A stretch of 57,712 nucleotides of DNA, filler included, from Asterionella formosa (GCA_002256025.1; 5 parts of 5 records of this genome joined end to end with filler, not necessarily neighbours in it); one strand, 5' to 3'. Counted from the whole stretch's first letter, positions 1,160-46,481 are shown. Program-made: numbers and translations. Notes: a model not told the origin generated them from the letters alone.

Positions 1160-2260
1160 CAGCATGACAATCTTGCCAATCAACCCGTAAGCAAACACAT
1201 TCTACTTGTTCTCGTTGACATTTTCAATTCTCACATGATACTACATCTACTATTTCGATTCAGCATAGAAGGAGATACGAAAATGTGCGTAACAGACTAC
1301 TGTCCACATAGCTATAGTTATAGAATGATTCTGATTAGAATTTCATTTTCATATCGCTCGCTCGTTTCTGCATTTGGTATACTGTACTTGAATTAACTAT
1401 TGAACTTGTCCGCATCTTTGATACCATCAAGAGAGCGAAAGCAAGTGGCTCTTTTCATTGTTGTTTGCTCGTAGGAAGAATTTGATATCTGTATCGTCAT
1501 TTGCTTGTTGGAATTGTCCGTTGCCTCAAACTTGCTTGGCGTGTGCGTGCACACACTGTCGACTTGTTTTCAATGGTATGTTGTTCTTGTATTCACTGTT
1601 GAACTTGTCCGCATCTTTGTAACCATCGATAGAGGGACAAGTGGGTCTCTTCATTGTTGTTTGCTCCTGGAAAAGTCGGTGTCCGTGTCATCCTCATCAA
1701 TAGAGAGACAAGTTCTTTCGTTGGAAAAATTGGCACCCGTGGTATCATCACTCGCTCGTTCGAACCACTGTCCGTTGCCTCAAACCTGATTAGCGTGTGA
1801 GTACCGGTATGTGCACTGTCGACTTTAGTTCATTACAGGCGGAGTGACTTCGCTACTAAATTGCGTGATATAATATACCCTGTAGCACGATGCAGAATAC
1901 AGTTGCCTCCAAATCATCTCATCATGATTGATAAGATGATACTGTGATATCATGATAAGGTTACATCGATACATACATCACCAAAGTATGATACGAAATA
2001 ATGAATAAAGTACATCACATAGCTATGATACATTGATCATAGAACTGTGATGATTTTATGAAATGTATATGACATAATTTTGATCAAAATATGATCATAA
2101 AAAAATAGTACAATGACAATAAAATACGATAAAATATGTACGCAAGTGTTACCAAGACATCATAGAGTATAAATCAAGCAATCATAAAGTATTTTCATTA
2201 ATATAAATATGTTTGTTGTTTAATGTATACAGTTAAAGTCAACAGTTAATATGATAGTAT
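1160..2260. repeat. About 1.1 kb direct repeat, copy A (copy B at 6264-7375), with internal ~200-250 bp subrepeats
   Basis: Colinear alignment by eye from CAGCATGACAATCT to ATGTATACAGT; GAACTTGTCCGCATCTTTG recurs near 1402 and 1601, TGTCCGTTGCCTCAAAC near 1515 and 1769. Confidence 0.9.
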
Positions 2261-3010
2261 TATACAGTGGATAGGATCTAAGTATATGGATGCGTTGATA
2301 TGTACATCACTAAAATATGATTTGTGAGATGGATTGATGCATATCACATACCGGTATCCTCAACAACCAGCCATCACGTTCATTGTCGTGTCGTCTTTCC
2401 TTGTTTTAGTTATATATGTGCCAGCATGTGTATTGTGTAAACACTACGCTAGCGGAACATGCATATTACACTGTGCTCTGTTCAACAATTACTACACTCG
2501 GTTACCATCACACCAGTTCCACCTCCACAGGCGCCGCAATAAGCTCCGCGAAGAGCTCCGCGTTTCCCTTCCACTGTTTTACATCATTGTCTTCTGGCCC
2601 TTCGACAACTTTCCAAATGGAATTTCACGGATTTCATGGAAAGGATCATTCAAACAAGAAACGAGACTTACTTCCATTGTTTACACTACACGACTTTATG
2701 TTTTCGGAAAAGAAAATGAAGAAAGTTATGAAATCAATCGAAGATTCCTTTGAAATCACTCAAAGATCAAATGAATTTGAACAGATTCATAATACTCCAA
2801 AAAAATAATCAAGTATGCCGATACAATAGTGGCTGAGATTGAAAAGAAGGAAAGATTGCTTTCGAAGAGGAAACCCAAACAGTTGGTCTTCGTGGATGAA
2901 GACTCTATTCGTACAGAGTCACAGTTCCACCATCCATTATCGTATTTTGCTTATTCACCCAAAATCGCTGATAATGAAGAAGAACTCAGTGATTCTCATT
3001 TATTTGATTC

Positions 3011-4620: not shown

Positions 4621-6132
4621 TAATATATATATGATATATTGTTATTGTCATATGATGTACCGGTACACATGAAGAGCTCTCAACCAAAAAAGGGGCTTAA
4701 ACAATTTGCTACCAAAACCCTTGCGGCAATTGAACGGTCTAAATAATTAGTTTCAACGGACGTGAAAAATATCGATGCAAACAAATTTCAGAATCAATAC
4801 CGGTACAGGTAGTCGTGGAAAACAATGGACGTATAGTGCATTGAGTATTTTCGAATTATGTATTTGCGAGTATGATCATCCCAACCATATCAGATGTTCC
4901 ATATCGAAAGGGCCTTTGAATTTTATTAATGTATAACACTTAATATATATATATATTTACAAATTTTATTACTATATTCATGGCCAATATATTTTTCAAA
5001 TCGTTCTGTCATGTTAACAAACAATGCCTGCTGCTTCATGAAAAGATATGTCGTAGTAAAGCAAATGACAATAAAAGAAAGTTTACGCAATACATAACGA
5101 AAAACATTGTGGCTTCGACACATTGCGTATTCGAAGGATGGAGAATGATTAAGGTAATGAAGCCATCAATGTGGTACTTGGATGACAATCGTTGGGAGGC
5201 AGGCAGCACAACAACAAATTGTTAACTAAACGCACATTTCCTTTTTTCTCAGTTGATTCAACAGCTCGTTTCGCTTGTTGGGGAGCACCAATGTAAAACA
5301 AAACCAAATTGCGTAAGTGCTCTTGTCGCTTGTTGGACCTATTCACTTCTGTTGGAACAAAACTGACAAAATGTTTACCTTCTCTCAAAGTTAAGCTGAC
5401 AAAAATGAACCGGTAAGTTTTATTCGACAACATTGGATACCCGAAACTTACTTATTCAAGAATTTACTGACAATTTACTGTAATAGACTTATGCATCATT
5501 TGCATTGATTTGTGGTAAGTGAAGCAAGAGGATACGGTGGAATTATGTGTCGTTGTGTCAATGTAACATGACTAGCTGACAAATCATTCCTTCTCATTGT
5601 TACTATAACTGCATGCATAGGAAAATAAAACCGATCAAACGCAATAGCCGGCGAGTTCACAATGACACTAACAGCAGGGAGAGAGACACAACATTAGTAA
5701 GGCATTGCTTGGCACAAGCTTGGCACAAGATTCAGAAAAGAGGAAGAAAAGGGTGAGACAGGAACAATATACATCGAGCCGAGTAGAGAGGGAAACGTTG
5801 GGTCGCTGGCATGTAGATTAATAGATAGCATTGCTTAGTAATTTGATAGTTAAATTACAATCCATTTCAATCTATTTTGAACAATGCTTGTGATTAGAAT
5901 TATGATCATGTTTACGATAGATTTACGATGAAACAATTCACATGATAGCATAGAGTTGAGCTGATTTTAGGATGCGTTGTAGTAATGATTTACATCGGGC
6001 GATCACGAGAAGTGAAAATAATATGAGAAGGTTTATGATATTGACGAGAAAAGTTGTTGATCAGTTTATATACATTGTGTGATGATAATGCTCTTATTAT
6101 CATTATACTTCAAGGTCGGTAACATATTAATA

Positions 6133-11478: not shown

Positions 11479-11578
11479 NNNNNNNNNNNNNNNNNNNNNN
11501 NNNNNNNNNNNNNNNNNNNNNNTTAATTAATTAANNNNNNNNNNNNNNNNNNNNNNNNNNNNNNNNNNNNNNNNNNNN
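11479..11578. other. Assembly gap with artificial TTAATTAATTAA spacer (also 23050-23149, 34611-34710, 46167-46266)
   Basis: Four identical 100-nt N blocks with a central six-frame stop linker. Confidence 0.97.
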
Positions 11579-12664: not shown

Positions 12665-13029
12665 GATGGACCAAGGTTCACAGGAAACGAAAATACGGCA
12701 TAGCAGGTACCAGCAGGTATGGATGTCTACCATTTTGTATCGTCATTGCTTAGTACCAGGTACCGTATTGTTGTTGTTTCAGCCAAACCCAGGTATGGGC
12801 ATCACCATGTTTTCCAATTTGTATAAGCAAGGTGTCTGTAATTTTTTAATACAAGGTAATATGCCATTCCCATAAAAGGTTCACCTTGTATTGGCAAAAG
12901 GTCAGTATCATGTCAAGTCCAATAAAACCATGCTCTTGCTTCTGTTGTTGCAGTCACTGTAAAAGTTTTCTCAGTGCTCCAATTTGCTTTGACTGGTGAT
13001 AAAGAATTGGTTAATTTCAATAAAGGCAA

Positions 13030-16200: not shown

Positions 16201-17456
16201 ATTGCTACATAGTTTTGGTTACTTATAGCTACTAATTTACATGGTCTGATGTATTGGTAATACTATTCACCTTCGGTCAAAACCAACAGACCAAAACCAT
16301 ATTAATGGCAAGTAGACAAGTTTTAAGTGTCTATATGAAGTGGGGTTTCAAGTGTTTCACATTATGAATGGATGGTCGATTTGAGTCAATCCAGTGTGAT
16401 TGTAAAGAAAAAATGCAATTACTCTCGATACAGGCTCCCATGATGAACAGAACAACTCCATGTACCAATACCAGGTACCGGTAGTTTGCTTGGTAAGAAA
16501 TCACTTCCTTGAAATGACTGTCTGATTTAAGAGGCATTGTGGTTTCGCTATCACAATAGAATCATTATTGCTCCCTGATTGGTTTATACCTCTACCGAAT
16601 ATAACTTCATAACGCATGTCCCAAAATGACGACGTGACGACTATACAAAAGACGATCTTGTATGTCGAAAAACCCAACAATTGCGATGCTTCCTCCAAAA
16701 ACGATGGATTGCAATACTTCACAAGATTGCTTTATGACCATTTGTGTGAAAAAGCCTCCCTATAACGTCGAATCAAATTACGAGTACCAGGTACCGTTAA
16801 AACAATACGAATGGCTGCACCAGTATATAAATTGAAACATTTACAATAACGTGAGTTTTTGCTCTATATATTCATTCGTCACATTTTTCGATTCGTGGTT
16901 ATGGTACCCTGAGAATTATTGAAATGAAATGACCAGCATATGGATGCTGTCTCTCGGACATCAATTTGTTGAAGAAACGACATTTTGTCATGTTGTACCC
17001 CCAGTGCTCCATCAATGATACCGGTATCTAAGTAAAATTACGTGGTAGGAATGATTGCCAAATTTACAGGTATACCGTTAGGTAAATTGTAAACTGTTCC
17101 ATTCACATGTCTCAGTAAGCATGTAGGAGCGATCAACAATGGATTTAAATAAATGACGGGACCAGGTCACTATTTATTAATCTGTATTTGTCCTTCTATG
17201 TAACTACAGCATTTACTGGTACTGATAGTGCAGAAACGAATACACCCCGGTAAATTAGAATCTATGTAATATTTTTCGATTTTATTGGAAGAAGCAGCTT
17301 GAGATCCCGCGGCTTGTCTCAGGGCCCTCAGGATTCCTCAAAGGAAAAAAACAATCAATCACAAAAACCAGAACAAATACAAGTAAACATACCGGTCGGT
17401 ATGTTTATCGGAACGCACTCCACATTTTTCGCATTCCCCACATCCCATAGCATCAA

Positions 17457-19087: not shown

Positions 19088-19201
19088 AGTTTAGGCGCAA
19101 GGTACCGGTAGTTTGCTACATTCTGACTGCAGGCGAGAAGATGCACTTACGAAGTAAATTATATGTTTTAATATAAGAAATAAATTGACCAAACTCAAGC
19201 C

Positions 19202-22072: not shown

Positions 22073-22468
22073 GGGGTTTGGAGTTCAATGGGCTTCACTG
22101 CAGAATGTCAATTGGGTTTCAAAGTGTTGGTTCGATGATATTACACGGTGATACTACTATAATAGAATTGCGCCTCTTGCTTGGTGCATGATTCGTTTTG
22201 TGTCCATTTCGTATGATGTATAACATGATGTACGGGAGTATTATTCTACCGGTACGCACATTTACAGCTTGCTTGCACTTTTGCTGCATGGCTATATACC
22301 GGTATATTAGTCAGTCCATAGTCGACATGTACTTACTATCTTTACTACTGGTATATACGCACCCCGGTAGTTGTGCGTGCTGTATGATTTCTACCAGGGT
22401 ACCGGTATACCAGGTGCCAGGTACCTGGTGAAGTATCTAACTAGAAGTAGTAGTATTTGTTGAATATA

Positions 22469-23049
22469 TGAGCTTATTTGTTAATCCTTGTGTGTAACTC
22501 GTTCTCCAAGTCGACACCAAAGTATACAATGAGGGTTAGTCGAGTTCTCTCATTATTGAGTTCTGATACATATATGATATAACACTAACCCTATATACAT
22601 CTGTATTGATGCGCAAGATCGCTCACTCTCCCACACCAAGGGAAAACCTTTTACCTTTGAAAAGGTTTGATGTAATGGATATTAATTCGTTCCGTTGTAT
22701 GCATAGTTTGTTGAAAAGTAACTGTACCATAGGATTCGATAGTGATGTAGGAATAACAATACGTCAAGTATCTCCTGGATTCTTTACAAAATACATGAAA
22801 TGTATATGATGAAAATTGATAGAGGGAAAATTTAACAGATGTGTTTGGTTTGTTGATTGAGAATGAGATGAGTTGTTTGATTGAGAATCAATTGTATATC
22901 CAGCAATTGTTTATCATGTATGGAGTAATATTCCAGAGGATATTGAATATTGTCTGCCAAAATTGGATGATTGAGGGAACAGGTAAACAAAGGTTCATCA
23001 TCTACTTCAATTGAGAAAGTAGAAATGGATGTTGATGCTGAAGATTTCG
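22469..23049 (-). mobile_element. Ty3/Gypsy remnant with internally deleted integrase, PPT and a 157 bp LTR (22469-22625)
   Basis: Minus frames give DDEPLFTCSLNHP...YPLEY..I...Q..D, NPGDT*RIVIP and GTVTFQ...ERINIHYIKPF; GGGAGAG tract then TGAGC...GCTCA termini. Confidence 0.62.
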
Positions 23050-23149
23050 NNNNNNNNNNNNNNNNNNNNNNNNNNNNNNNNNNNNNNNNNNNNTTAATTA
23101 ATTAANNNNNNNNNNNNNNNNNNNNNNNNNNNNNNNNNNNNNNNNNNNN

Positions 23150-24338
23150 GGGACTTCCTGATTTGTACGATACAGTTGGAGGAGCTGGTATTGGAACTTG
23201 GTGTCTTATGGGTACGTATTGTATTGATTACTTTCGTGAAATGGTTGCAGATGGCAACAATTCGTGTGCTAACAAGCAGCATCTTCTGCTTCCTTTCTTT
23301 ACAGCGAATATGTGGGGCTGGTATGGAGATCAACTCTACCCACCTCTCATGTCAGCTTGGGCCAAGATGCAGCTTGGTTGGGTCAATGTCGTGAAAGTCC
23401 TTGCGGCTGAAACCAATGTCAAAATCCTTGCAGCTTGTGAGGGTGACACTATTTACAAGATTGCCTACAATATGAAACCTGGGGAATTCTTCTTGGTGGA
23501 AAACAGATACCCATGCGGATACGATGCTAAATTAGCCCATCACCTGGATTCACCGAACAAGGATCGTTCTGGTATTGCTATTTGGCATATTGATGAGTCG
23601 GATGTTCTTGGTGTGGGTGTAATTGGATATCAAACAGAAGGTGTTTGTGGCGGTGGCACTTGCCGCATTCATTACCGTGTAGCTTTGGTCCAGGGCGACG
23701 GAAACTTCGACATGGAAAGGAACGTCAACAAGGGTGACCGCACTGATGCGTTCCGTCAACGCCCCGTTTCCGATACCTTAGGAGCCACTCAAGCATATAA
23801 GATTGATAACAATGGTGTCTACCTCAACAGTGGAGTGGTCTTACCAGAGCCCAACACCAAGGGCTATGCTGGTGCTACAGAATACCCCACTGGCATTTCG
23901 ATTGAAGTCGGTCCACAGGCCAAGAATATGATTCTGATAATCAAGTTGACTGGTGCCACTGGGAACAATAGTGGTAGCAGCACCGGTACGGTTCAAGAAA
24001 AAATCACACCGACGAAAGCCCCTACGATGGCCCCCGTTGTGTCACGAGGCGTTACTTGCACACGGCCGGATTATGTCCGACTTGCAGGTTACGGATGTCC
24101 CACACGACTTCCGATTGTCAAGACTTGCAATAATAGTCCAACCCAGACGTTTTTGGTCACAGGGGTCGGCATCACCCCTAAAAGTTGGAAGACCAAAACT
24201 TGTTCGTTTATTACAGCGAGCAACGCCTTCAAGTTTTGTCCACTCCTTGATTACTCGAAAAGGGATGCTCGAGGGAAGAATCATCCGTACATTTATTACA
24301 CATGTCAGATCCAGTGCAGAGATTGGTCGAAGTGCTAG
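23150..24338 (+). CDS. M6-family (immune inhibitor A-like) metalloprotease, 5'-partial; intron 23212-23304
   Basis: GLPDLYD...GIGTWCLMA, SAWAKMQLGW, EFFLVENR, GIAIWHIDE, VALVQGDG; the HExxH motif would lie in the gap. Confidence 0.88.
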
Positions 24339-24960
24339 TCGAACATACAACATGTTTCTTAGGAGTGTAGCGTCTCAGTTAGCGCTGTAATTTGTTTTTC
24401 TTCACTATTAGTAGTTCTTTTAGTCAAACCTTAATTTAATGAGACGAAAAGCCCTTTCGTGGTCTCCATGCAATAATAGGGCTCCAACTTGAGGCAACAG
24501 GAGTCAAGCATATATATTGCTTTGTTGCGAGTACCAAATCAAGAGACGTTTTAGTGCTCAGAGTAGTCACAAATTGCATGCCTAAGCCATATCCTTCTAC
24601 CTTGTCGGGTCCTCGTCCTTTTTGGACAGATGGTAAACATGCTGTTGACGATCCGATGAGATTGAGCGAAACGTCGTGGGCACTTGGCTCAACATTCAAA
24701 CCAAGGAAGCAAAGGATTTGGAATTGTACTGACGACCAGAGCACTGCCAGTCACCTCGCTATATTTTTTATGCGGGGTGGCTGTTCAATTGACTACCGGT
24801 ATACGCTTTTGAAGCATAATAGTAGCTTTCCAATGCGATCATATTGACTTGATGTAATTAGTGATATTTGCAATGTAGGTTTAATTGCAAAACTAGGTAA
24901 TCTAGGAAATCATATGCCTACGATACCAGCGAACTAAACTATTGAACTGCTGTTGACAAC

Positions 24961-25758
24961 TCAAAATTCGTCCATTTCTTCCTCATCCACCTCATAATGA
25001 ATATCGTCAGGACCGTATTGGAATTCCGGCAAAATATCACCATGATCTCGGAATTGCCAAATATCATGCTCGCCCTTTGCAATTCGCTCGTCTTCCAAAT
25101 CCGCGATTTGTGGAAGCAAAAACATTCTGTGCTGGTTCCATGTGTAATCATCGCGACTTTTAACGAATCCTTCAGCTTCGAGTGTACTAACGCGAATGGC
25201 TTCCTTACGTAGCTGGTCGGGAAATCCGTGCATGCTCAAGTGAATATTAGACGCGTACATCAACTCCCTTGGACTGCAATCTTCCTTTGTTCTCAAGTTA
25301 CACTTGAGAGCCCAAATCCTTTCGTCTGGATCATGTATATCGAGGAGCGTCATTTTCAGAGTGAATGGCTCACCGGGGTTTAATCCAGCAGGAAGGAGAA
25401 TAAAATCATACCCGAATTCTGCTGGGGCATAAATGTCAAACAAGTCCCCTTCCACCATGTGAAGAACGGCCAATCGCATAGCAGGAATAAACAAATCTTT
25501 GGCTAAACCATACGTAGGTTGCTCTGATTGTTCCACGTCTTCATTTCTAATGTTAACGACCTTCCACATGGTCGATACTGTCGCCGAATCAAGGGGATAA
25601 TGAGCACCATAGCCGGCTTCTAACCGCTTGTAGAAGAGACCTGTATTGCCGAGCGGGAGCACACCTTCTTCTTGAGACTTGGCAGTAATCCAGTCGTCTT
25701 CAGCGGCAACTAAAGTGAGGGAAAGGAGGAAACCGACGGTGAAGATGAGTAGATTCAT
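24961..25758 (-). CDS. Secretory-pathway FKBP/Mip-like protein with divergent active site
   Basis: Signal peptide; GLFYKRLEAG..HYP, IPAMRLAVLHMVEGD...IYAPAEFGY; C-terminal helical Cys-pair region ending MDEF. Confidence 0.75.
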   Translation of the reverse strand: MNLLIFTVGFLLSLTLVAAEDDWITAKSQEEGVLPLGNTGLFYKRLEAGYGAHYPLDSATVSTMWKVVNIRNEDVEQSEQPTYGLAKDLFIPAMRLAVLHMVEGDLFDIYAPAEFGYDFILLPAGLNPGEPFTLKMTLLDIHDPDERIWALKCNLRTKEDCSPRELMYASNIHLSMHGFPDQLRKEAIRVSTLEAEGFVKSRDDYTWNQHRMFLLPQIADLEDERIAKGEHDIWQFRDHGDILPEFQYGPDDIHYEVDEEEMDEF

Positions 25759-26329
25759 GGTGGCGGTGGGAAGGAATCTTTTGGTAGTATGAATTGTGAG
25801 TACCGGTAATTGGGATTTCTCATTGTTTGGCCTTTTATTATTCCAATCATTCCGCCCGTACATAGAGGTAATATCTCAGCCTCAGCCGTTTCAAGAGATG
25901 CATGAATTCCACCACTTTGCATTACTGTACGTAATGGTCGATAGTTCATTGGTTCTGATGGTGGTGACAATTGGTCATGCACAACAGCCACGTCTGAGAT
26001 TCATAGTTGAGATACCGGTACCGTACCTGGTGCCTGGTACCTGCTGAGTAAGTACCTGGTACCAGGTACCTGGTGAACTGGTACTCCGACATGCCGGTAC
26101 CTTCTACCTGGTACCAGGGTACAAGTAGCCTGTGTTCGCGCGTGACGTCATAAGTTTCAAATGTACGATTGGCAACTACCAGTACGGTACGGGCAACCAC
26201 TCGGCAGGGCACAGGATCACGAGTTTTGAGGAGTGAACGACAGACTCGATTGTTCCATCTTTGCTTTTCTCTCGGGGCCTGCGCGTCTTGTTCACTTTCG
26301 TTGGGTTTTTTCGTACACACCACAGCCTA

Positions 26330-26423
26330 TGCAAGTTGCGGTCATTTTGCTTAAACTAACTTTTTAATCTGGGATAAAGATAGCTAAATCTTTAGCTTCA
26401 GCAAAATTACCGCAACTTGCTGG
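26330..26423. mobile_element. MITE copy 1 (Tc1/mariner-type; left tip eroded)
   Basis: TIR GCAAGTTGCGGT.ATTTTGCT / AGCAAAATTACCGCAACTTGC-TGG then TA; colinear with 29086-29181. Confidence 0.8.
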
Positions 26424-26807
26424 TACCTGGTACCAGGTACCTGTTCCCATTGCACATGAAGTTCGCACATTGCTTCGGCTGGACTAGAACTAGTCTACCG
26501 TACTTATTAGGTAGTACAAGGTACAAGGTTCACCGTATCCATTGCGCACGTTGCAACTAAATAGGAATACAGTATAGAGCAAGCTGATGCCGTCGTAGGT
26601 TACTTGTACCAGGTACCAGTACAAATGTAGCGCTAGCTAAGAATTTAAAAAGATTTTACGAGTACCGGTATTCACATACCGTACCTGGTACCAGGTAGCT
26701 AATCATAGTCCTCACAGATACACTGGTATACGTAGGATCTTGTGATTATATTCATAAGCAATAAGTGTCACAACGACCCAACTATAAACTCGTATATCTA
26801 TGTAACC

Positions 26808-27308
26808 ATGAAACTTATTGGTGCATTTGCTGCTTCGTTGGTGATTCCATCCTTACGACAACAACAACAACGACGTTTCCTCATGTCCACCATAGCAATG
26901 AAAAAGCCATTTGCGGTTATTGTTCAAGCTGAAATTCAACCAGATCGAATGAACGAATTTCTCGCCATGATTGAGTTGAATGCCAAAGAAAGTCGCAAGG
27001 AACCAGGGTGCATGAGATTTGGTACGTTTTTGTATACAGGTTTTCTATATTTATTTAAAGATTATGGAGACTACCGGTAGTTCATTCTTTGTCTAATGCA
27101 CGTACACTTGCACGATAACTAAAACATAGATGTCCTTCGAGACCAATCTCAAGAAAATAAATTCTTTTTCTATGAGCTCTACCAAGGCCCAGAAGCCATT
27201 GATTATCACAAAGCTCAACCTCATTATGCAATGTGGGCAAACTTTAAAGAAAGCGGTGGAGTGGTCTCATCGGTTAGTTTCAAGACAGATGGTGAATTTT
27301 TGAGTTAA
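26808..27308 (+). CDS. Antibiotic biosynthesis monooxygenase (ABM)/LsrG-like small protein with N-terminal targeting extension; join(26808..27021,27130..27308)
   Basis: SRKEPGCMRFDVLRD...FFFYELY...AIDYHKAQPHY..W after splicing a GT-AG intron. Confidence 0.85.
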
Positions 27309-27520
27309 TTACTCCATCTGGTATACTGTCACACTTCGCTACCACACACTTCACTACTTAACCAACTCTAGTCGAATACATAAGGAGTACCTAAAGTCTA
27401 TAGAAATGAAAGTCAACGAAAGCACGGTTTGTGTGTGCCTAAAGTCTACTGGAATATGGATGTGTATATATATAGTACATTGGATACACTCCAGCTTTCC
27501 GAGTCACCTATTCGTTGCTT

Positions 27521-28516
27521 CTAATCCGCCTTGAGTGCAAACTTGACCGTTTCAATTCCACTGGAACGGATAATCATAATTTCCAACGTGTCACCGGTGT
27601 AAATGTCTCGTTCTCCCGCCGTGACAAAGGCATCTTTAACAATTTCCACCACTTCCTCGGCTCCCAAGTCTCGTTTAGGATCCAAACGTCCCTTGTGTCC
27701 AATAACATTGTCCAACAATGGAATAATGTATGCTTGTCCAGAACCATTGGCTGAATAGGTAGTACGTTCAAAGGATCCAATTGCATCATACGAATATACA
27801 GCTCCCTTGCCCTCGGCATCAATCCCACCCAAAACATTAAATGCATAATATGGAAAGAATCGTTTGTAATACAAGGTATTGCCCAACATTTGAGCGACAC
27901 TTGGTGTGGACATTGGTTTTCGAAGATTGTGTTCGTACACCTGCCAATGATTCACGGTGTGTTAGTCCACCTGTTATTTATAGAATGGTATCGTATGACA
28001 ACATGGGCAGACCGTCTGGTCTTGTCTAGTCCAGCCTACCCTACCCTACCCTCTCACGTACCTTGCAATTAATTCCCAACACACTGCGCAACTGATCGAC
28101 ATCTGTTTTACATCCAGCACTTCCCAAAACACACGTTCCTGTCAATGGGTAGAGTTTACTAACATTCCGTGAAAGAATTTCATATCCCGAGCTCAATCGA
28201 GTGTCAGCAGCTACAATGCAAAAGTCTGACCCACTAATGGCCACTGTGGTTCCACCGTTAAAGTCATACCTGTTTGATATTTTGTATTATAAAAGAGTGA
28301 AGAAGTGAGCAGATGAAGTGAGTTTCTATCAAACGAGAGAGAGGAGAGCGAATGTGTGATTAAGGATACGTACGGACTAAATCGATGTTCATAAGGAGCG
28401 TCCGTGACGCCATGATCGATGGAATCCGCATAAAGCGAATCGCCTTCTGTACTATGCACTACCATGGGCATGGTGGGCACTGCGGTTCGAAGCATTTTAG
28501 TACTTGTCGTCGTCAT
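27521..28516 (-). CDS. PSMB1: 20S proteasome subunit beta-6 (PSMB1/Pre7 type); complement(join(27521..27940,28062..28269,28374..28516))
   Basis: [51 protein letters not shown]; two GT-AG introns in frame. Confidence 0.95.
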
Positions 28517-29085
28517 TGTTGACTCTTTTATAGTAATAGTCTTTTGACTGGTGGACTGCGAAGAACTAGTGTGGGTGCTTCTTGAAATGTTATTGCATTA
28601 CGGTGCCAGGTAGTAGCTACCAGACAAAGATGAAACCAAAATAGGTAGACTAGCCTGGTACCAGGGTACCAGGTACCACCACTATGCCGTGCTCTCATGA
28701 TCATGCAGATCATCAGTGCCAGCACGATGCATCAAAAGCCAAACCTTTCATCCGGCTTCGGCACCCTTCGATGTTTGTTTCGTCTGACTCAAGATCATCC
28801 TCCAGCCAAACAGACAGACCAAAAAAGGGAATGATACTGTACAACGGACCGATAACGAGACACGCGGTAAATCATGATTGGGTTCTTGGCTGGAGAGCAG
28901 AAACCGGCAGTACTGGTGCGAGTGGGATGGCTTTTCCTGTATATAGGGCTCTGGGAGTATTCTGCTCTATACAGGGCAATACTGTCCGACCGTCGCGAAA
29001 ATTGCATCAGAAAGACAAACATTATACTACCGGTACGTGTGTATCCTGGTACCAGTAGCACGTGTCAGGCCGGGGGTACCAGGTA

Positions 29086-29181
29086 CCCGCACGTTGCGGT
29101 AATATTGCTTAAACTAACAATTTAATCTAGGATAAAGATAGCTAAACTTTTAGTATCAGCAAAATTAACGCAACTTGTTGG
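29086..29181. mobile_element. MITE copy 2, 96 bp, flanked by TA on both sides
   Basis: TA|CCCGCACGTTGCGGTAATATTGCT...AGCAAAATTAACGCAACTTGTTGG|TA. Confidence 0.82.
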
Positions 29182-29607
29182 TACTGTACATGGAATTTTA
29201 TTCAAATTTCTTTGGTAGAATATTTTACCAACGGATCCTGGTACCTGATAATGTGATACCTGGGACCAGTACCAGGGTACCAGGTACCAGGACCATGGAC
29301 CAGTAGTTTCTGATTGTATTCCGGTATGGGCATACTTCCCTGTACATATCATCAACATGCATGTACATTTTTACAGTACCCGTATGTAAATATGTAGCTC
29401 GACACTTTCAAATCGGGCTTATATCAAGTAGAGTGCGAGGTCCAATGTGTCTGTATGTAGGCGTATTGTACAAATATGTTGCTTCATATAACACCATTTG
29501 GCCCTGACGTACCGTGTGTTAGTTGTAAAACAATGGTACCCTGGTACCAGGGTACCAGGTACCTGGTACCTTGTAGACTACCAGTACCCTTGGAGTATTG
29601 TAATATA

Positions 29608-29687
29608 CCAGGGAGTTGCGGTAAAAGACGGTTTTTACTATAAAGAAACATAGCTAAATGTATTTCTCATTCACCGCAACTTGCAGG
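29608..29687. mobile_element. MITE copy 3 (80 bp related subfamily), flanked by TA on both sides
   Basis: TA|CCAGGGAGTTGCGGT...ACCGCAACTTGCAGG|TA; shares ATAAAGA and ATAGCTAAA internally with copies 1 and 2. Confidence 0.72.
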
Positions 29688-29851
29688 TACAGCTAGACTA
29701 CATACACTGGTACCAGGTACCAGGTACCAGTTAAAGACGAAAACAATCCTGGTTCAATCCTCCATTTTTACAATTTTTTGATTGTTCGCGTTTGAAATAT
29801 AGTCCATGCATAAATATCTTCTCTCCGCGCCCATCATTGTTGTTCGATTCC

Positions 29852-31135: not shown

Positions 31136-31466
31136 ATATGGAAGGGTGACCAACTACTAACTACCCTCAAGAGAAAAACAATGGTAGTAATACACTCAGT
31201 AACCGAACGCCAAACCTTAGTTTACGAGAGTGACTTGCAAAGGTATCTAAAAAAGTCGAGTGTTGGAGGCAAACATTATAACATTTTGCAATATAAAAAA
31301 ATAGTGTGACACTGATAGTTATTAATGATGACAAAGTGGGTACTACCGGTATTCAATCTTTTGAAAGAAGCAGTTACATGTTCCTTGCATTGATTCTACA
31401 TATATCTCCCAGTTCCTCATCAGTTACCGGTAGCTCGCGGTATTAATGGTGGCATTCTTTCCCTGC

Positions 31467-32211: not shown

Positions 32212-34170
32212 CTTTACATACTATACTCTCTACTAAGATGTGTTCCGTAGAGCGGAATGTTTGTTCGATGCAAACGAAAGGAATCAGAAATGGTTTTGAC
32301 GCTTGCTTGCTCAAGTTTTCGAACAAAGAAGAGAGTGAGAGTGAGAGTGCGAGATGAAACGAATGAACTGCGGTAAATCAATAATAATGAATCCCACTTT
32401 TGGTTCTTATCAAGTTTTGTTTCATTCTTGTACATATTATTAGTGTTCTTGGATTCTCCTCGCTCACACCACCACTCAACGCACCCACACATGTATTTTG
32501 TAACTATCATACCGGTATGTAGAGATAAATATCGAATACGATAAGATATATGGCTGCACCAGTAGACCTACCAGGTCCAAGGTAAGTATTTATGCTAGCT
32601 AGTGTGAGATACATTTCACAGCTACCGGTACGGAATACGAACCGTTAACACGACTCGCCGTTTATTACCGTACCCGGTAACTGGACCTGGTGCATGACGA
32701 GAAGAAAATTGTCCTTGTTCGCTCGTCCTGGCAATAATTTTGACCGGTATGCAGCTACCGCACTTCTGCATATTTGCCGGTAGACTAACTGGAATACATG
32801 TAGCAATAGTATATGCACAGGGAAATTGGTATGTTATGTAGAAGTGGCCGACGCACACGTAACTACGCCGTTTGCCTGGCTTCCGCTGCTTGCTGGTGCC
32901 ATGGTCCTGTTTAGATAACTCAAAATGCATGCATATATGTGTGATTATCAGGAGAAATAAAAATAGTTACCGGAATACAGGTGCTCAGCACCAGTAAAAA
33001 AATGCCATGTGACCCATTGAGTTACCGGTAGGGTGCTTGTTTGACTCCTCCGACTACTGGTAAATTTCTACCGAATTGCGGATCCGTTTGTTCGATAGTG
33101 TAAGTGCAGCATCCATCAATCAAGCTGGCTGTCGTGTTAGAATTCTGATAGAACGATTTCATCAGAAGAGTCGGCGATGATAATAAAACAGCTAAAAAGT
33201 GATTTCAATGGGTCACGGCAGTTCATACTTTTTTCTTGATAAACGACTATAAATTTATATACATTTTTGAGGACGGATTAGGAAGCTTTTCTAAAAATCT
33301 ACGATACATAACTGCCACTTCTCTCCAGAAGTTAACTCCTGACGTTATGGGCTACACGGCTACCTATTTTAATCGTCATGAAACCCCGTAGATGTAGAGC
33401 AATCCTTTTCCAAAAAGTCGACCCGATCGGTTTTTTCAACAGTGGCCAAAATATTGGAATCGGAATTAGTACATGCAAAAACGTCCTCGTAGACTTAGAG
33501 TCTTGCGTAGGTATGTTTCGCTGAATAATTCTCTGTCCGAAAAGAGTCCAGGGTGAGTTTTCGCATCACTACACATATTCTGATTGGTTGAATTGAATTT
33601 ACTCACCTGCTCCAGATCGGCCGAAGTATTCCGGTCTTATACAATTACGCCAGCCATACTTGAACCACATGAATTATATGTAATGTACCGTTACTCGGTA
33701 GGTGAAATAAGTACTACCGGTAGTTTCATCATCCGTCGTCATTAGGTAAGTACCTTGGTACACCGTCACTCCGGTATTGGTTAATGTACCGGTATGTGCC
33801 TTTGAGTGTAGGGTAATACCGATATGCCTTTTTAAATCTACATACAGCAACAAAGATTCAATACAAACGGATAAAAATTATCATGAATATAAATTTAGGA
33901 ATGGCGTGGAACAAAATTATGTCTACATTCAGCAACGTAGATATAATAAAAACGTTGAAATATCATTTTTGTTTGTTTAAAATTGAATTCTGTCTATCTG
34001 GCGCCAACACCTATTTAATTCAAATATTCAAATGGACACTCGAATCATGGGATCTCATAGCAGCAAACTCCCTGTTCCATTCAGTTTTTACAATCCTAGC
34101 GACGTTTTCTCCAAACTACAGTTGAGCCGAGGGCCACAACCTTAAAGCGCTTGTCAGGCCGTTGCTAACC

Positions 34171-34225
34171 GTTGACCCAAAAGTTTTTGGGTTTTGGTTT
34201 TGGTTTTGGTTTTGGTTTTGGTCAA
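34171..34225. repeat. (TTTTGG)5 tract closed by a short inverted repeat
   Basis: GTTGACCCAAAA at 34171 pairs with TTTTGGTCAAC at the end of the tract. Confidence 0.8.
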
Positions 34226-34482
34226 CTGACGCAAAAATGATGCTATCGGTTCTTGGGAAATCCTAAATGCTGTCAACCCCCCATCTACTGTGATGTAGGA
34301 TGACAAAACCATTATAAAAAAAGTAAATTATTTCTATTAGGCTGCTTTTATAAATGAATTCTTATGATTCCTATTAGGGAATGAGTTAGTTTTTCCCACA
34401 ATTTGAGCGATGCTGCTGTCTTGTTGTCATCCAACTACACACCAGTATGTATATATATATAGAATATAGAGTCGTAAATATC

Positions 34483-34610
34483 GTCTGTAAATAAAAAGTA
34501 TCATGCATATAGGATCAAGGGTATCGTACGCTAAGTGGCACAGGATTTTCGTATATATGATAATTTTTGGATCAAAAATATGATCAAGGTATCTTGTATC
34601 TATGATGATT
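34483..34610. repeat. Inverted copy of 6133-6260, truncated by the gap
   Basis: Direct reverse-complement comparison. Confidence 0.9.
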
Positions 34611-34710
34611 NNNNNNNNNNNNNNNNNNNNNNNNNNNNNNNNNNNNNNNNNNNNTTAATTAATTAANNNNNNNNNNNNNNNNNNNNNNNNNNNNNNNNNN
34701 NNNNNNNNNN

Positions 34711-37430: not shown

Positions 37431-37738
37431 AAATGATGACCAAGTCAGGATATGAACAGGATAGAAGGAAAATGAATTACCGGTAATAATAATAATAATA
37501 ATAATAATAAACTTAGCATCACTCCGATCCTGCTGTGTAGGACAATACAGAGTCATGAAATTATCACTCCACCATTGTAGTAAAAATGGAGGTATGCCAC
37601 TACATATAGTACAGGCGGCACTAATAGTAGTATAGAACAGCGTCAATGCTTTCCCAACATCTATGATGTGGTTTGCACTGTAGAAGTCTCACACTAACTA
37701 TATTTATTATGTAACTACTAAGTTTGCATCGGATTCCA

Positions 37739-42600: not shown

Positions 42601-44917
42601 AAGCAACAACGAAAATCCACCAATTTTTGTGCCATCGGTTACGCACTAGGTAGACCACGAGGATGTCACTATCATACATTCATTTACAGATGGGTGTAGT
42701 TAGGACCAGCTTCTGTTGTTTCTATTCGAACTAATCAATCGAGAGATTTATATGTACCGGTATGTGCCTTTTTTAATTGTTGTCTACCAGTATGTATTTG
42801 TATACCTTTAATACTACCGGGTATACCGGTACTACCGGGAGTATATCTAAACGCATGCCTTTAACGGGGCTCCTTCTTTTGATGGGGGGTCGTGGAGGAT
42901 ACATAGCGATAATCGGCCTCGCCACAATTTGCTCACCATAAGTTTACTTACTCGGTAGCGTAGTCGGAGAAGTGCAATACGAAGATATTCTGCTACCTAG
43001 TACTTTGATGTTGACCTTCATAATCAATCCCACATAAATCATGTCGAATTAAGGACATTAAAGCATGATGCCAGCAAACGTGATGATTGCAAAGAAAGGT
43101 GCCTTTCCGGTTGCCGCTAAGGGATCTTTCCCAGTCCATTATCGTGATGAACTAGAGGAGCCAATTCGAGCGTATACGAAACGAAAAACGAATTATGGCA
43201 GACGAGGATTGAAGCGCATTTGCTGTTTTGCAACGGAAAATCGATCCACTGTTTACCCTTACTACATCACGCATTCGAAGAAGAGACTATTCCGTGTCTC
43301 GGACGACGCCTTGGCTCCCCTCCTTGAGTCGGTGGATAACTACTGATTCAGGATTAGTGAATGTGTATATGATTCGCGTAATTCATAATTGCACGACCAA
43401 CTAGAAAGAAGATCAGAAATCACAAATTCACGTACAACACCTAATCGCCCACCGATTTTTCGCGTTGAGTCATGAAGGGATGGAATCTGCTACTTGACAA
43501 CGAAATTTGTTTTACTTGTGGAACAACATTCATATATGATGAGTAAGCAAACAATAGAACAATAACTTTATATAAGATTATACCGAGCCCAAGGAATCAT
43601 ATTGAGATGAGCTTTACAATCCGGTAAGCTTGGAAGTTTAGATGTGAACTATCATTGCATGGAAGCATGTTGGGTTTAAAGTCCCAATGTTTCAACTTTT
43701 CAATATTTCGTGTATATCACTGATAGGCCATTTTCTGGTATGTCAATGAAAGGGCAAAGATTGGAAAGTCTATGACATTGTGATGTTGGGCTAGTGACTT
43801 GGGTACAGTCTCATGTGGGCGATTACCACCATCCCTGTTGCATATAATTTCATGACATGAAAATGAATTGATCCCTTCTCTTCATTTCATTATTCTGTGA
43901 AGCAACTTCCTCAAACCATAACGACCCATTCTACTCTCTATTTTATAGGCTCCTGTAACTACTGGTATACTATTAAAACCGGTGTTTGCTTGCTTATAGT
44001 ATAAGGTGTAAGGTAATGAGTGAATCAAGAAAAGTGCCATAATCATCATGTTCAAACACATTATAGCTCTATTATACAGAGTAACAACCAAAATGTATAC
44101 TGGCATTATCATAGAGGGAGGAGAGTATTAATTATATATTAATCATTTTTATAGCGCATTTGTGCTATTCTATTTCTAGAGTTGCTGTTGTTGTTGCGCT
44201 CCATGACCCATATAAGTTGGGGCAGTGGAAAGGTTAGGATGGAAGTCACTTCCCTGTGGAAGTGGATTTAAAAAAGTTGCGGTAGCTTTATTCTTGGTTC
44301 AGTTCTCTATAAATGCCCTTCTAAGGCCAGCCAGAGAATCGGATGGTGAGTGTAGATTGGGTTAAAAATTTCCATTTTGGCACCAATGCTGGTTGTTCTA
44401 TTTGAAGTATCCATAACAACTGGTGATTCCAGGGCTTCCAACTCATTGTTTTTGTCTTGTCTTCTTTGTCATCATAAAATTATTGCTTTGAGCAGCACAT
44501 CCAGCTCTGGCGCAATTTCTCCATCAGTGACTTCTTTTTTCTCTGTCTTCTTCATCTTTCTTTGTCAATAATGTTTAGCATGTCACCATTCTTGTATTCT
44601 TCTTCTTGCATTATTGTAATAGCGCTCACTGTCATGAAAAAGGGGTTCAACTTCTTCTTTTCTTTCCTCTTATGGTTGTCTTTGCATGGTTCTTCTTCTG
44701 TTTGTGTTGGGTTGATATGATTGCCATGAATTCCTCAATTGTAGTATTTATGTCAAATGCCAAATGGACATCCATGCAATGATCACCATTTCTCATTGTT
44801 GCTGCTCCTGCATTAAGCTTTGTCTGCTTATTCATCTCCTCCTCTTTCTGCATTCTGCATTCTCTTTCTATTGGATTTCATTACTATCTTATGGTTCTCT
44901 CCCACATGAATGATTTG

Positions 44918-45185: not shown

Positions 45186-46481
45186 CTGCTTGCTGGATAG
45201 CACCTTTTGTCATGGTAAATCGGCCGTTTTTAGGAATTATTAAGTATTACTAGAACCCAGAGGTCCCAGTTGCTTGAATACCACTAAATTCTGTGATAAG
45301 CACTGTGGTACTGTGTTAGTCTTTCGTTAACTCGCCTTCATACTTGTCAAGCAAAGGAGAAACGATTTAGAGAGTATACCAGTATTAATTAATTCGTACT
45401 CGTTGATGGTACATATTCAGAATTTGACATACGCACGGCAAGCACAGCCTTTCGTTTGCTTTCTCCAACAGCGGCAAACTGAATACCAGAAGATGATCAT
45501 ATGAACACACGTACGCATGCTCCTAAGTAGTACCATAGATACCATTGGTCTTGGCAGCAAGTTTTGAGCTATTTATGGTGTAAGACCACTTTGATGTGGC
45601 GAATGTCATCATCGTCCCGCAGCAAGCAACAAACGACCAAAATGCCTTTGATGATCAGCCATAATATATTCATAGCTGAATATATGCTTGCTTGCTCGTT
45701 TCTGTAGGCGTACATACTACGGAGTATATATATACCGGGTACCCGGTTGGTCATACCGGTATATATTTACATATGTATGCACACATCAAAATAAATGCAG
45801 GTTTATTTATTATTACATATTGTATCAAATCTCGTATTCATAATCCAAACTACAGGGACCCACCATTTCACTTGACCTCAATGATGCGAGAAAGAGTATG
45901 TTGGAACGGTCGGTCAACTGGTGATGAATGCACTGTGGACTTTGTTATTTGCAAACATAAAAATATAGATCTATACCAACATCGGGAGTACCTGATGGTG
46001 AACCCAAGCAAAGTGCCAACTTTTGAAACTTGAGTATAAGTATTTATTTTACACGTTGGAGGACAAAATAGTGAAGAAAAGGTGAATCGCATTGTTGTCC
46101 CTCGATTACTGGTCCTCCACTATACTCCTTGCGCCTTTCATTTAGAGCTTCTGTCCCTAAGGACATNNNNNNNNNNNNNNNNNNNNNNNNNNNNNNNNNN
46201 NNNNNNNNNNTTAATTAATTAANNNNNNNNNNNNNNNNNNNNNNNNNNNNNNNNNNNNNNNNNNNNCACCATGATTCGTCTATCGATATACCCGTACTGG
46301 TATTTGGTGTGCTGTTCTTACAAATTGGAAGGAAGCACAGTCAACAGTTACTGCTTTGCGGATTTTCTACAAGGATACCAGTAGATCATACAACAGATGG
46401 GTTTTTTAGAAACAATCGCAGATCCCCTGAGGCAAGGACAACGAAGAAGAGTCTCGATAACCAAAATCAGATAAAGAAGTG

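Follow-up and report, generated by a model that had tools for sequence, protein, structure and literature searches.

The window, that is, the whole stretch of DNA analyzed, comprises 57,712 bases of Asterionella formosa (GCA_002256025.1) joined from five pieces of about 11.46 kb. Besides these ~57 kb, the material covered two short loci from other samples, L016 and L070, which are unrelated metagenome contigs, each with the same MITE and chains of short palindromic units. As seen in Table 1, copies of the palindrome TACCGGTA, chains of related units and three copies of the resident MITE are found in the window. Perfect palindromes lie at 26422-26441 (20 bp), 29534-29557 (24 bp) and 51698-51717 (20 bp), exactly where the first-pass annotation had placed them. 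That annotation had described the motifs as one span, 22390..29730; the motifs are present there, but the span is not continuous, as one of the joints between pieces (23050-23149; linkers N44-TTAATTAATTAA-N44) falls inside it. Contigs of other runs were used for comparison: X1, X2 and X9 are DNA from three different studies, and X10 is poly(A) RNA.

Table 1. Positions of TA-bordered units, chains and MITE copies in the window
Feature	Positions	Strand	Remarks
TACCGGTA in repeated element	1802..1809	.	paralogue at ~6921 is TAGTA; older internal repeat at ~1545 has neither
Solitary TACCGGTA	2349..2356	.	
Solitary TACCGGTA	4658..4665	.	
TACCGGTA, TA in common with CAGG	4798..4811	.	
Chain CCAGG-CCG	12754..12767	.	
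Chain CCAGG-CCGG	16469..16483	.	
Solitary TACCAGGTA	16785..16793	.	
Solitary TACCGGTA	17019..17026	.	upstream of LPMO10/chitin-binding gene
Solitary TACCGGTA	19103..19110	.	between ends of two convergent ORFs
Solitary TACCGGTA	22247..22254	.	
Solitary TACCGGTA	22297..22304	.	
Chain CCAGGG-CCGG, then decayed units (taccaggtgccaggtacctggtg)	22392..22440	.	piece 2
Solitary TACCGGTA	24794..24801	.	between two convergent genes
Solitary TACCGGTA	25801..25808	.	43 bp upstream of ATG 25758, minus-strand gene
Chain cluster, divergent intergenic region	26013..26121	.	CCGG-CCG at 26013, CCTGG-CCAGG at 26053, CCTGG-CCAGGG at 26105
MITE copy 1	26328..26425	.	both TA duplications included; left tip damaged, TA-T-GCAAGTTGCGG (TA-T-GCAAG); right end CCGCAACTTGC-TGG-TA
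Chain CCTGG-CCAGG	26424..26441	.	first TA is right TA of MITE 1; part of palindrome 26422-26441
Chain CCAGG-CCAG	26607..26621	.	
TACCGGTA, then chain CCG-CCTGG-CCAGG	26663..26697	.	upstream of ABM-domain gene
Solitary TACCGGTA	27072..27079	.	within intron of ABM-domain gene
Chain CCAGGG-CCAGG	28659..28675	.	
TACCGGTA	29028..29035	.	56 bp from MITE 2
Unit TACCAGGTA	29077..29085	.	second TA is left TA of MITE 2
MITE copy 2	29084..29183	.	TA-CCC-GCACGTTGCGG...GCAACTTGT-TGG-TA; 88% identical to copy 1
Chain CCAGGG-CCAGG	29270..29286	.	
Four-unit chain CCCTGG-CCAGGG-CCAGG-CCTGG	29537..29568	.	includes most of palindrome 29534-29557
MITE copy 3	29606..29689	.	shorter, diverged core; TA-CCA-GGGAGTTGCGG...CCGCAACTTGC-AGG-TA
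Chain CCAGG-CCAGG	29711..29726	.	22 bp right of MITE 3
Solitary TACCGGTA	31344..31351	.	in poly(A) RNA contig (X10 record 14), past transporter ORF stop
Solitary TACCGGTA	31425..31432	.	in poly(A) RNA contig X10 record 14
Solitary TACCGGTA	32510..32517	.	
Solitary TACCGGTA	32623..32630	.	
Solitary TACCGGTA	33023..33030	.	some X1 contigs 3 letters shorter (place 33025), read as TAGTA
TACCGGTA in very high-copy repeat	33715..33722	.	
TACCGGTA in same very high-copy repeat as 33715 copy	33787..33794	.	
TACCGGTA in Plavaka-type transposon copy	37478..37485	.	plain TA at ~3943 in paralogous copy
Solitary TACCGGTA	42755..42762	.	
TACCGGGTA, then directly TACCGGTA	42815..42831	.	
Solitary TACCGGTA	45754..45761	.	
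Solitary TACCGGTA	51592..51599	.	
Chain CCAGG-CCTGG, a 20-bp palindrome	51698..51717	.	piece without MITE

Enriched words and the resident MITE

The palindrome TACCGGTA has 28 exact matches in the 57,712 bases, compared to a mean of 0.22 and a maximum of 2 in 100 dinucleotide-preserving shuffles, which bears out the earlier estimate by eye of more than 25 copies against about 1 expected. The spectrum of all TA-spacer-TA words in the whole stretch was judged against 60 second-order Markov simulations. The spacer CCGG occurred 28 times (0.52 expected), CCAGG/CCTGG (CCWGG) 20 times (0.58), CCAGGG/CCCTGG 6 times (0.08) and CCAG/CTGG 15 times (2.65), and the remaining top rows were AT microsatellite words. 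TA stood on both sides of 28 of the 93 CCGG and 20 of the 79 CCWGG, and the flanks of the TA-bordered copies are unrelated. Every enriched spacer other than the microsatellite words is a 2-4-base prefix of CCWGC joined to a 0-3-base suffix of GCWGG; the proposal that the spacers combine the two tips of the inverted repeat was thus matched exactly. Strict units amount to about 1 per kb of the stretch, and their spread over pieces 1-5 is very uneven (4, 10, 33, 4 and 3; n=54).

The element seen here is a Stowaway-like MITE of 84-100 bp with the ends TA-CCWGCAAGTTGCGG...CCGCAACTTGCWGG-TA. Five copies, the three of the window and those of L016 and L070, were aligned; TA borders both ends of 3 of them and one end of L016, and a unit adjoins an end in 3 of the 5. 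All three window copies had been said to end in TA-CC(A/C)G...(T/A)GG-TA, but the left CC is found only in copies 2 and 3, because the left tip of MITE 1 is damaged. Contigs of X1, X2 and X9 that exit the left end of the MITE read ...TACCA or ...TACC before (T)GCAAG, beyond which the flanks are otherwise unrelated (24-42 contigs per run and position, agreement ~0.4). In X1 the bin of MITE 1 has a summed depth of ~781,000 compared to ~1,100-1,300 alongside, and from this bin 24-56 contigs per run exit into unrelated flanks. The MITE occupies many loci in three independent runs; the diverged run X2 likewise carries MITE 1 and MITE 2, its contigs stopping inside them. Chains directly abut MITE ends, as had been noticed, with the MITE-end TA shared at 26424-26425 and 29084-29085. 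An autonomous Tc1/mariner/pogo element was also looked for in the window, and none of the 13 + 79 ORFs scanned there matched such a transposase; the superfamily is therefore read solely from the duplicated TA and the inverted repeats.

Two classes of units, their gain and their decay

The units fall into two classes, solitary TACCGGTA not associated with the MITEs and chained MITE-linked CCWGG, a division new in this analysis. TACCGGTA is solitary in 26 of 28 cases, whereas 22 of 26 CCWGG-type units belong to chains (Fisher p 5.9e-9). Within piece 3, 18 of 20 CCWGG-type units lie at most 400 bp from a MITE, compared to 24% of all TAs; for TACCGGTA the figure is 3 of 13, the same as for background TAs. 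Four TACCWGGTA and two TACCGGTA occur in the 1,003 bp of L016, and three TACCWGGTA in the 1,725 bp of L070. The earlier suggestion that one family wrote all of the motifs by serial re-insertion fits this division poorly, as such a split is not expected from one family with a single repair spectrum.

Gain of a unit can be seen in two copies of a Plavaka-type transposon, which read AATTA-ATA and AATTA-CCGGTA-ATA at a site adjoined by a length change of an ATA microsatellite. Compared to the older internal repeat, the motif at 1802 has 6 additional bases. Two or three differences between copies amount to 3 bases and not to whole units, TACCGGTA being opposed to TAGTA at 1802/6921 and at 33025 and TACCAGGTA to TAAGTA at 33748, and these would require either another excision or some further step. 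Among the high-copy repeat variants listed, no 6-base deletion of the TACCGGTA at 33715 or 33787 is well supported, so that some copies may be passively multiplied. The search for empty, MITE and footprint alleles at one site thus yielded a plain TA opposite TA-CCGG-TA in one paralogue pair, but none of the alleles and paralogues compared paired a MITE-bearing copy or strain with a footprint-bearing one at the same site.

The relationship of MITE and palindrome could be reversed: TACC(W)GGTA would pre-exist as an abundant palindrome, the MITE would be specialised to insert at its center, CC(W)/(W)GG and TA would belong to the target, and chains would attract MITEs. Co-localization of MITEs and CCWGG chains works in either direction, and chain clusters are present in MITE-free pieces (51698-51717, 22392-22440 and 16469-16483). 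W is the same top-strand letter at both ends in 3 of 4 readable copies (MITE 3 A/A, MITE 1 T/T and L016 T/T, with L070 T/A), resembling a 1-base direct repeat and not an inverted repeat, although 3 of 4 is not significant. Nevertheless, this explanation is unlikely. It does not account for where the palindrome came from, in the Plavaka pair the word is seen to arise at a plain TA through a 6-base insertion, and the left flank of MITE 1 is TA without CC. We know of no family of TIR transposons whose insertion targets a 9-bp palindrome and duplicates 0-1 bp. The standard Tc1/mariner pattern combines a duplicated TA with tips that derive from the element (PMC4561436, PMC7827188).

For the chains only, arrays of GGTACC(W) could have grown from a seed without any transposition, through slippage, hairpin-mediated slippage or tandem duplication. 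The palindromic units could form hairpins, and a tandem duplication (29 bp x1.9, 81% match) at 26023-26078 overlaps part of the cluster 26013..26121, in which decayed units (GGTGCC) are interspersed among the chains. This case demonstrates that chains grow also by duplication. As a general account of the chains it is quite unlikely, since the runs are short (30 singles, 10 doubles and 1 quadruple), units of 6, 7 and 8 bp are mixed, no 7-bp array was reported by Tandem Repeats Finder, and true microsatellites in the stretch are long and pure, such as (TTCT)55 and (TTGG)12. Both W letters are mixed as well, being the same in 7 pairs of neighboring chain units and different in 7, which fits independent repair outcomes better than slippage. 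Solitary units and the match to the MITE tips would also be left unexplained.

Decay of the units appears in the one-mismatch variants of TACCGGTA, which number 46 over all positions (9.6 expected). The ratio of this excess to the 28 intact copies is ~1.3, where a neutral steady state would predict ~8/7, so that the frequency of decayed copies is close to that expected under neutral decay. The words TACCAGTA/TACTGGTA (15 compared to 1.15 expected), previously listed among the relatives of TACCGGTA, need no event of their own; they are its CpG-transition products.

None of the 54 strict units lies in a Pfam- or RNA-supported coding segment, and 11 are in unsupported ORFs or upstream of an ATG. 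In the ABM-domain gene, exon segment 26808-27011 corresponds to ABM profile positions 1-36 and exon segment 27129-27305 to positions 40-75. It is very unlikely that TACCGGTA and the GGTACC-rich chains are protein-binding sites (for a transcription factor, insulator or chromatin factor) selected in gene-rich intergenic DNA. Such sites would agree with the 33 of 54 strict units in gene-dense piece 3, with chains in two divergent-promoter regions and with the palindromic form, which dimeric factors prefer. The TACCGGTA at 24794..24801 has no listed base change in the diverged runs X2 and X9, compared to 15 listed changes across the surrounding 214 bp, but at ~7% divergence an 8-mer stays unchanged more than half the time. 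However, solitary copies also occur in an intron, in 3' untranslated RNA past a stop, between convergent genes and inside three different transposons, and the units are therefore not tied to promoters. Moreover, flanks are unrelated, chain spacing is 6, 7 or 8 bp, one copy came into being by insertion into a transposon, and the decayed copies are as frequent as under neutrality.

Artificial joints do exist in the stretch, yet an origin of the words from adapters, linkers or misassembly can be dismissed, because contigs of DNA runs from three studies, and of the RNA run, cover the chain and MITE regions (X2 record 19, for example, covers 26420-29167, differing in 9 letters and having 17 gap letters; chain-bearing bins have extra depth from other loci in X1, X2 and X9), and the same MITE with chains is present in two unrelated metagenome contigs.

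Probable excision footprints and known systems

The TA-CC(N0-2)GG-TA words are probably excision footprints of TA-duplicating cut-and-paste elements ending in CC...GG. This interpretation, already offered by the first-pass annotation, agrees with the enrichment of spacers that match the tips, with the presence of the MITE at many loci and its TA duplications, with the one empty-TA paralogue, with the clustering of MITEs with chains and with the decay spectrum; the MITE/footprint pair and the transposase were the parts of it not found. From these features we infer excision itself, the cut positions, the cycle of re-insertion and the existence of two donors. A Tc1/mariner-type transposase would insert the MITE at a TA, which is duplicated, and on excision the non-transferred strands would be cut a few bases inside the element, so that each donor flank keeps TA and a CC(W) overhang. 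End-joining of these overhangs would give TA-CCGG-TA, TA-CCWGG-TA or TA-CCAGGG-TA. Being neutral insertions, such scars would accumulate between genes, in introns and untranslated regions and within other transposons, and would then decay through point mutation, fastest at the central CpG. Chains would arise where an element re-enters the TA bordering an older scar and exits again, through either very local hopping or a preference for GGTA/TACC contexts, and an occasional tandem duplication would add to them. Behind the two classes there are probably two kinds of donor element, or else two ways of end pairing: overhangs ending in complementary bases would produce CCWGG, while copies or families with unpairable overhang ends, or ending in CCG, would produce CCGG.

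The HIP1 sequence of cyanobacteria is a highly iterated octameric palindrome, scattered genome-wide far above its expected frequency, which also occurs inside genes and whose origin is not known to be tied to a transposon. The comparison with HIP1 that had been drawn holds as far as both may be described as scattered 8-bp palindromes far above expectation. It is an analogy only and not a relationship. Unlike HIP1, the word here has no copy in supported coding sequence, and it agrees with transposon tips.

Closer parallels exist among Stowaway-like MITEs of the Triticeae. PMC1925063 describes footprints in beta-amylase intron 4 and DMC1 with 1-4 bp of TIR inside TA duplications, several different footprints at one site, including a minimal and widespread TA...GTA type, and a new element at the TA of an older footprint. 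TA duplications are likewise kept around few TIR bases here, and TAGTA corresponds to the TA...GTA type. In that account, single loci were traced over a phylogeny, whereas here the scars are among the most over-represented non-coding words and are joined through shared TAs into arrays of as many as four units.

According to PMC7827188, the cuts of mariner and Sleeping Beauty fall 3 nt within the element, so that the donor DNA keeps 3-nt 3' overhangs, and cut-and-paste elements in general hop locally. The TA target duplication, footprints from end-joining of element-derived 3' overhangs and local hopping are shared with mariner, Sleeping Beauty and Osmar as described in PMC7827188 and PMC4561436. 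Unlike in those accounts, the set of scars here (CCGG, CCWGG and CCAGGG), judged from the sequence, would imply 2-4 retained bases per side, and the chains would need hopping over tens of bases, a far shorter range than is quoted there for Sleeping Beauty.

The mechanism, that of Stowaway/mariner footprints, is already known; what appears to be new is the scale, together with the arrays. Most likely, a familiar by-product of transposition is here among the commonest words of the sequence.

Over-represented TA-flanked words and the resident MITE

The palindrome TACCGGTA occurs 28 times in the window against 0.22 expected, while the maximum in 100 shuffles of the window was 2. When all TA-N(0-8)-TA words were scored against 60 second-order Markov simulations, the spacer CCGG was found 28 times (0.52 simulated), CCAGG or CCTGG 20 times (0.58), CCAGGG or CCCTGG 6 times (0.08), and CCAG or CTGG 15 times (2.65). 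Otherwise, the enriched spacers of the window were AT microsatellite words. TA is present on both sides of 28 of the 93 CCGG and 20 of the 79 CCWGG (W, A or T) in the window. The flanks of the 28 TACCGGTA copies display no kinship, and their sole pattern is a scarcity of T just before or A just after the word (5/56 versus 24.5%, p 0.005). At 9 of the 56 half-sites the word is extended to ACTACCGGTA or TACCGGTAGT, and at three sites TAC-TACCGGTA forms a one-base TA-C-TA unit abutting the palindrome; these forms may represent a target preference or a mini-footprint. The three palindromes described in the first-pass annotation were all perfect when checked in the window, and its chains of units sharing a TA with the MITE ends at 26424 and 29084 were likewise confirmed.

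Five copies of the MITE can be aligned, three in the window and one in each of two unrelated metagenome contigs, L016 and L070. The consensus is TA|CCW-GCAAGTTGCGG ... CCGCAACTTGC-WGG|TA, with a length of 84-100 bp including the TAs, terminal inverted repeats CCWGCAAGTTGCGG / CCGCAACTTGCWGG, and no coding capacity. The TA target-site duplication is seen on both sides in three of the five copies and on one side in L016, and is degenerate on both sides in L070. The CC-tipped ends ascribed to all three window copies hold for the element generally; in copy 1 the CC of the left tip has been lost. The window was compared with contigs of three DNA runs, each from a different study (X1, X2, and X9). 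In each run, 24-56 contigs leave the MITE into unrelated flanks, and the element is therefore present at many loci. Those leaving its left end finish in ...TACCA or ...TACC before (T)GCAAG; therefore, both W letters are common. The summed depth of the MITE bin is several hundred times that of neighboring bins, a depth that is not a copy number. Given the TA duplication, short inverted repeats, small size, and many copies, the element is, judged from its sequence, a Stowaway-like MITE. It probably belongs to Tc1/mariner, for which the transposase would be the proof.

The scan of 92 window ORFs yielded no Tc1/mariner/pogo transposase, the Plavaka and Copia-type matches in the table being its only transposable-element hits. 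A 16-letter repeat-end pattern matched at least 120 metagenome loci; among the 120 listed, L016 and L070 alone were real MITE copies, the rest being chance matches in unrelated contigs, and neither of the two carries a transposase. A 17-letter MITE core matched 66 loci in prokaryote genomes and 7 in viral contigs, none of them a MITE, and the 20-letter end and 20-letter chain patterns each matched 0 viral loci. Within the window, no TA-flanked inverted-repeat element with CC tips was found besides the known three. The unrelated miniature element listed in the table has AT-rich tips, so its scars would be undetectable. At 1215-1520 of L070, a marine metagenome contig, a short inverted-repeat sequence of the GGGTTTAATTTT type is present in three copies and is possibly another miniature element.

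Coordinates of features in the window
Feature	Position	Observation
Solitary TACCGGTA	27072	intron
Solitary TACCGGTA	31344 and 31425	poly(A) transcript, past stop codon
Solitary TACCGGTA	24794, 19103	between convergent genes
MITE copies 1, 2, 3	26328-26425, 29084-29183, 29606-29689	
Tandem duplication	26023-26078	29 bp, 1.9 copies, in chain cluster
Plavaka-type copies	2996-4624, 36540-38079	~89-93% identical; several indels, including a ~90-base gap at 4339-4434
Plavaka transposase family match	36335-36817	ORF, E 3.4e-08
Miniature element	8064-8215	152 bp, TA-flanked, perfect 14-bp inverted ends (ATTCTATTAAAACT); related inverted copy 54892-55166
Non-coding repeat, very high copy	33108-34610, 6133-6260 (reverse)	summed contig depth 500-2,000 times single-copy bins in three runs, depth not a copy number; >100 contigs over many positions; (TTTTGG)6 array at 34186-34222
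Repeat common to pieces 1 and 5	10108-11478, 56915-57712 (inverted)	~1.4 kb, 92-94% identical
Copia-type reverse transcriptase fragment	55871-56584	RVT_2, below Pfam's cut-off
Microsatellites	44918-45185	perfect (TTCT)55, then directly (TTGG)12
LPMO10 gene	17254-19087	LPMO10 domain, two 114-bp proline/threonine-rich tandem repeats (18368-18585), C-terminal chitin-binding domain
Gene in JGI cluster	24961-25758	protein is a member of a cluster of 8 sequences
3' intergenic stretch	24656-24999	X2 versus window: 344 bp with 22 base changes plus 20 gap letters; just 9 changes over the following 2.7 kb (26420-29167)
Artificial linkers, N44-TTAATTAATTAA-N44	11479-11578, 23050-23149, 34611-34710, 46167-46266	between five pieces of ~11.46 kb each

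The sample for the scar reading comprises the 57 kb window and 2.7 kb of outside loci. Adjacency in the genome is not implied for neighboring pieces. The span 22390-29730, delimited in the first-pass annotation, crosses one joint, and its first 660 bases consequently belong to a different genome stretch from the remainder. The window DNA is eukaryotic, with split genes for a proteasome beta subunit, an ABM-domain protein, a UAA-family transporter, and LPMO10/chitin-binding and hemerythrin/CHY/RING proteins. Public runs containing this DNA are labeled as algae, freshwater, or lake-water metagenomes.

Excision footprints as the probable origin of the words

The formation of footprints is textbook knowledge for Tc1/mariner and Stowaway elements, and excision footprints are usually regarded as rare single-locus curiosities. 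In the window, the enriched spacers equal a tip prefix plus a tip suffix of the aligned MITE copies, as had been proposed from the sequence. Each such word has the form of a footprint, in which the retained target duplication encloses a few terminal MITE bases. According to two published accounts, the nick made by mariner and Sleeping Beauty transposases falls three nucleotides into the element, which leaves the donor flanks with TA and a 3-nt element-derived 3' overhang, and end-joining then yields the footprint (PMC7827188, PMC4561436). For this MITE, the overhang on both flanks would be CCW. Joining with a one-base overlap would produce TA-CCWGG-TA, trimming of the unpaired W would produce TA-CCGG-TA, and the retention of one extra base on one side would produce CCAGGG. 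These predicted products are exactly the enriched words, and the excision chemistry thus supports the footprint reading. In a study of Triticeae, the footprints deduced for Stowaway elements hold 1-4 bp of the repeat within the TA duplications, a minimal TA...GTA form occurs, and in one instance a new element has settled at a TA of a footprint that predates it (PMC1925063). Overall, the TA-CC(W)GG-TA words are probably excision footprints of TA-duplicating, CC-tipped elements.

Alignable paralogous DNA within the window holds only 2 of the 54 strict units (intact TA-spacer-TA words). In the pair of Plavaka-type copies, AATTA-ATA is aligned with AATTA-CCGGTA-ATA, beside an ATA microsatellite length change, and the TACCGGTA word here would have arisen by insertion at a TA. 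In a second repeat family, the TACCGGTA at 1802 exceeds the element's own older internal repeat by six bases, and TAGTA is found at the paralogous position, ~6921.

Several observations speak against the footprint reading. Between copies or between strains, no site was seen to alternate between MITE and scar, either in the window or in runs X1, X2, and X9, and no MITE-sized gap with a footprint was present among the best-supported indels listed. The diverged run X2 contains MITE 1 as well as MITE 2. Three of the differences between copies are 3-base changes rather than whole units (TACCGGTA/TAGTA twice and TAAGTA/TACCAGGTA once), so that a second event is needed. The TACCGGTA words at 33715 and 33787 may belong to the consensus of the high-copy repeat at 33108-34610, in which case they were copied passively. 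As separate observations, many gap letters distinguish X2 and X9 from the window in chain regions, for example 17 gap letters as compared with 9 base changes at 26420-29167, and the divergence between X2 and the window at 24656-24999 reflects a second haplotype or else strong polymorphism of the spacer.

Solitary CCGG and chained CCWGG units

The units divide into two classes, a split that the first reading did not foresee. TACCGGTA is present in all five pieces and is solitary in 26 of 28 cases. In piece 3, only 3 of 13 copies lie at most 400 bp from a MITE, which is the background level (24% for the TAs as a whole). Of the 26 CCWGG-type units (CCAGG, CCTGG, CCAGGG, or CCCTGG between TAs), 22 have a TA in common with another (Fisher p 5.9e-9); 20 are in piece 3, where 18 are no more than 400 bp, and all no more than 425 bp, from a MITE. 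The two metagenome contigs were picked by the MITE alone, yet chains are present there as well, with four TACCWGGTA and two TACCGGTA in the 1,003 bp of L016 and three TACCWGGTA in the 1,725 bp of L070. The same top-strand W is found at both ends in 3 of 4 readable MITE copies. A match between the W of a resident MITE and that of adjacent units was also sought by eye (6 of 8), and was set aside as too weak a link.

The co-localization of MITE and chains, together with the W shared by the two ends, could also be accounted for if the palindrome came first and served as a landing pad, the MITE targeting its center. This order of events is unlikely, since it leaves the origin of the palindrome unexplained and conflicts with the empty-TA paralogue of the Plavaka-type pair.

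The runs of units are short (30 singles, 10 doubles, and one quadruple), and neighboring units in chains have the same W seven times and a different W seven times. Tandem Repeats Finder reported no 7-bp array, although (TTCT)55 and (TTGG)12 were reported at other positions of the window. Independent repair events at neighboring TAs therefore fit the chains better than slippage. The 29-bp duplication in a chain cluster indicates that duplication also contributes. To regard the chains as a pure minisatellite would account for this single duplication and nothing beyond it, and is quite improbable.

Under the footprint reading, MITE copies with complementary overhang ends, as expected of the 3 of 4 readable copies with one top-strand W at both tips, would join cleanly to CCWGG, with a tendency to re-enter tens to hundreds of bases away. 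CCGG scars would derive from copies or related families with unpairable overhang ends or CCG tips, departing to distant sites. The split between solitary CCGG and MITE-linked CCWGG presents a concrete and testable puzzle.

Probable neutral decay and possible meaning of the proposed scars

None of the 54 strict units lies within a Pfam- or RNA-supported coding segment, and 11 of the 54 fall in ORFs without such support or immediately before a start codon. HIP1, with which the word had been compared, is a palindromic octamer over-represented throughout the genome, genes included; the window word is over-represented as well, but it lacks supported coding copies and is very uneven across pieces. 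Solitary TACCGGTA copies also occur within three different transposons. Words one mismatch away from TACCGGTA total 46, with 9.6 expected; the mismatches affect all positions, and 28 copies are intact. This ratio of intact to decayed copies is close to what would be expected of steady neutral birth and decay. Based on 28-54 intact units, each with 8-9 positions open to decay, and on ~2,600 TAs located outside long ORFs, our own steady-state estimate would place the scar rate per TA at about one tenth to one fifth of the substitution rate per base. Among decayed forms, TACTGGTA/TACCAGTA is the most frequent (15 versus 1.15) and is the CpG-transition product; because of this, CCAG/CTGG need not be a scar of its own, and the separate class suggested for it is not required.

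Selection for a binding site would match the over-representation of units in gene-dense DNA and at divergent promoters. Such selection fits poorly with the copies in an intron, untranslated regions, and transposons, the decay spectrum, and the variable spacing, and we regard it as very unlikely. Conservation of the TACCGGTA at 24794 in X2 and X9 was considered and given no weight at ~7% divergence. A library artefact, which the first-pass annotation had named as a possible refutation, is contradicted and can be practically dismissed, because the chain regions are covered by contigs of the three DNA runs, each of a different study, with added depth contributed by other loci that hold chains.

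The mechanism is known; we could not find a report, in the literature searched, of footprints as a dominant word or as palindromic arrays with shared TAs. Two 13-letter chain words gave no match in a search that left subscription journals and bioRxiv supplements outside. For TACCGGTA, which is present in 509 papers, the 20 matches listed were primer- or construct-like, and of the 70 that also contain 'transpos' none of the 20 listed was on topic. At the level of concepts, the footprint work matched was single-locus or assay work, as judged by its listings and abstracts.

Tentatively, cycles of MITE insertion and excision might constitute a mutational process that writes 6-8-bp palindromic scars into accessible non-coding DNA, with the scars as preferred re-entry points. 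As a consequence of such re-entry, promoters near resident copies would grow self-extending, GGTACC-rich palindromic arrays. If true, this would be an iterated palindrome written by a transposase in a eukaryote, and an over-represented promoter palindrome may be a scar rather than a binding site, a caution for motif discovery. The scars, which far outnumber the resident copies, would provide a direct sequence record of how frequently a MITE family moves, and a natural system for the end-joining outcomes and target choice of Tc1/mariner-type transposases. Footprints would then be a dominant source of insertion mutations and of palindromes in promoters, introns, and untranslated regions, and the setting would be a free-living eukaryote.
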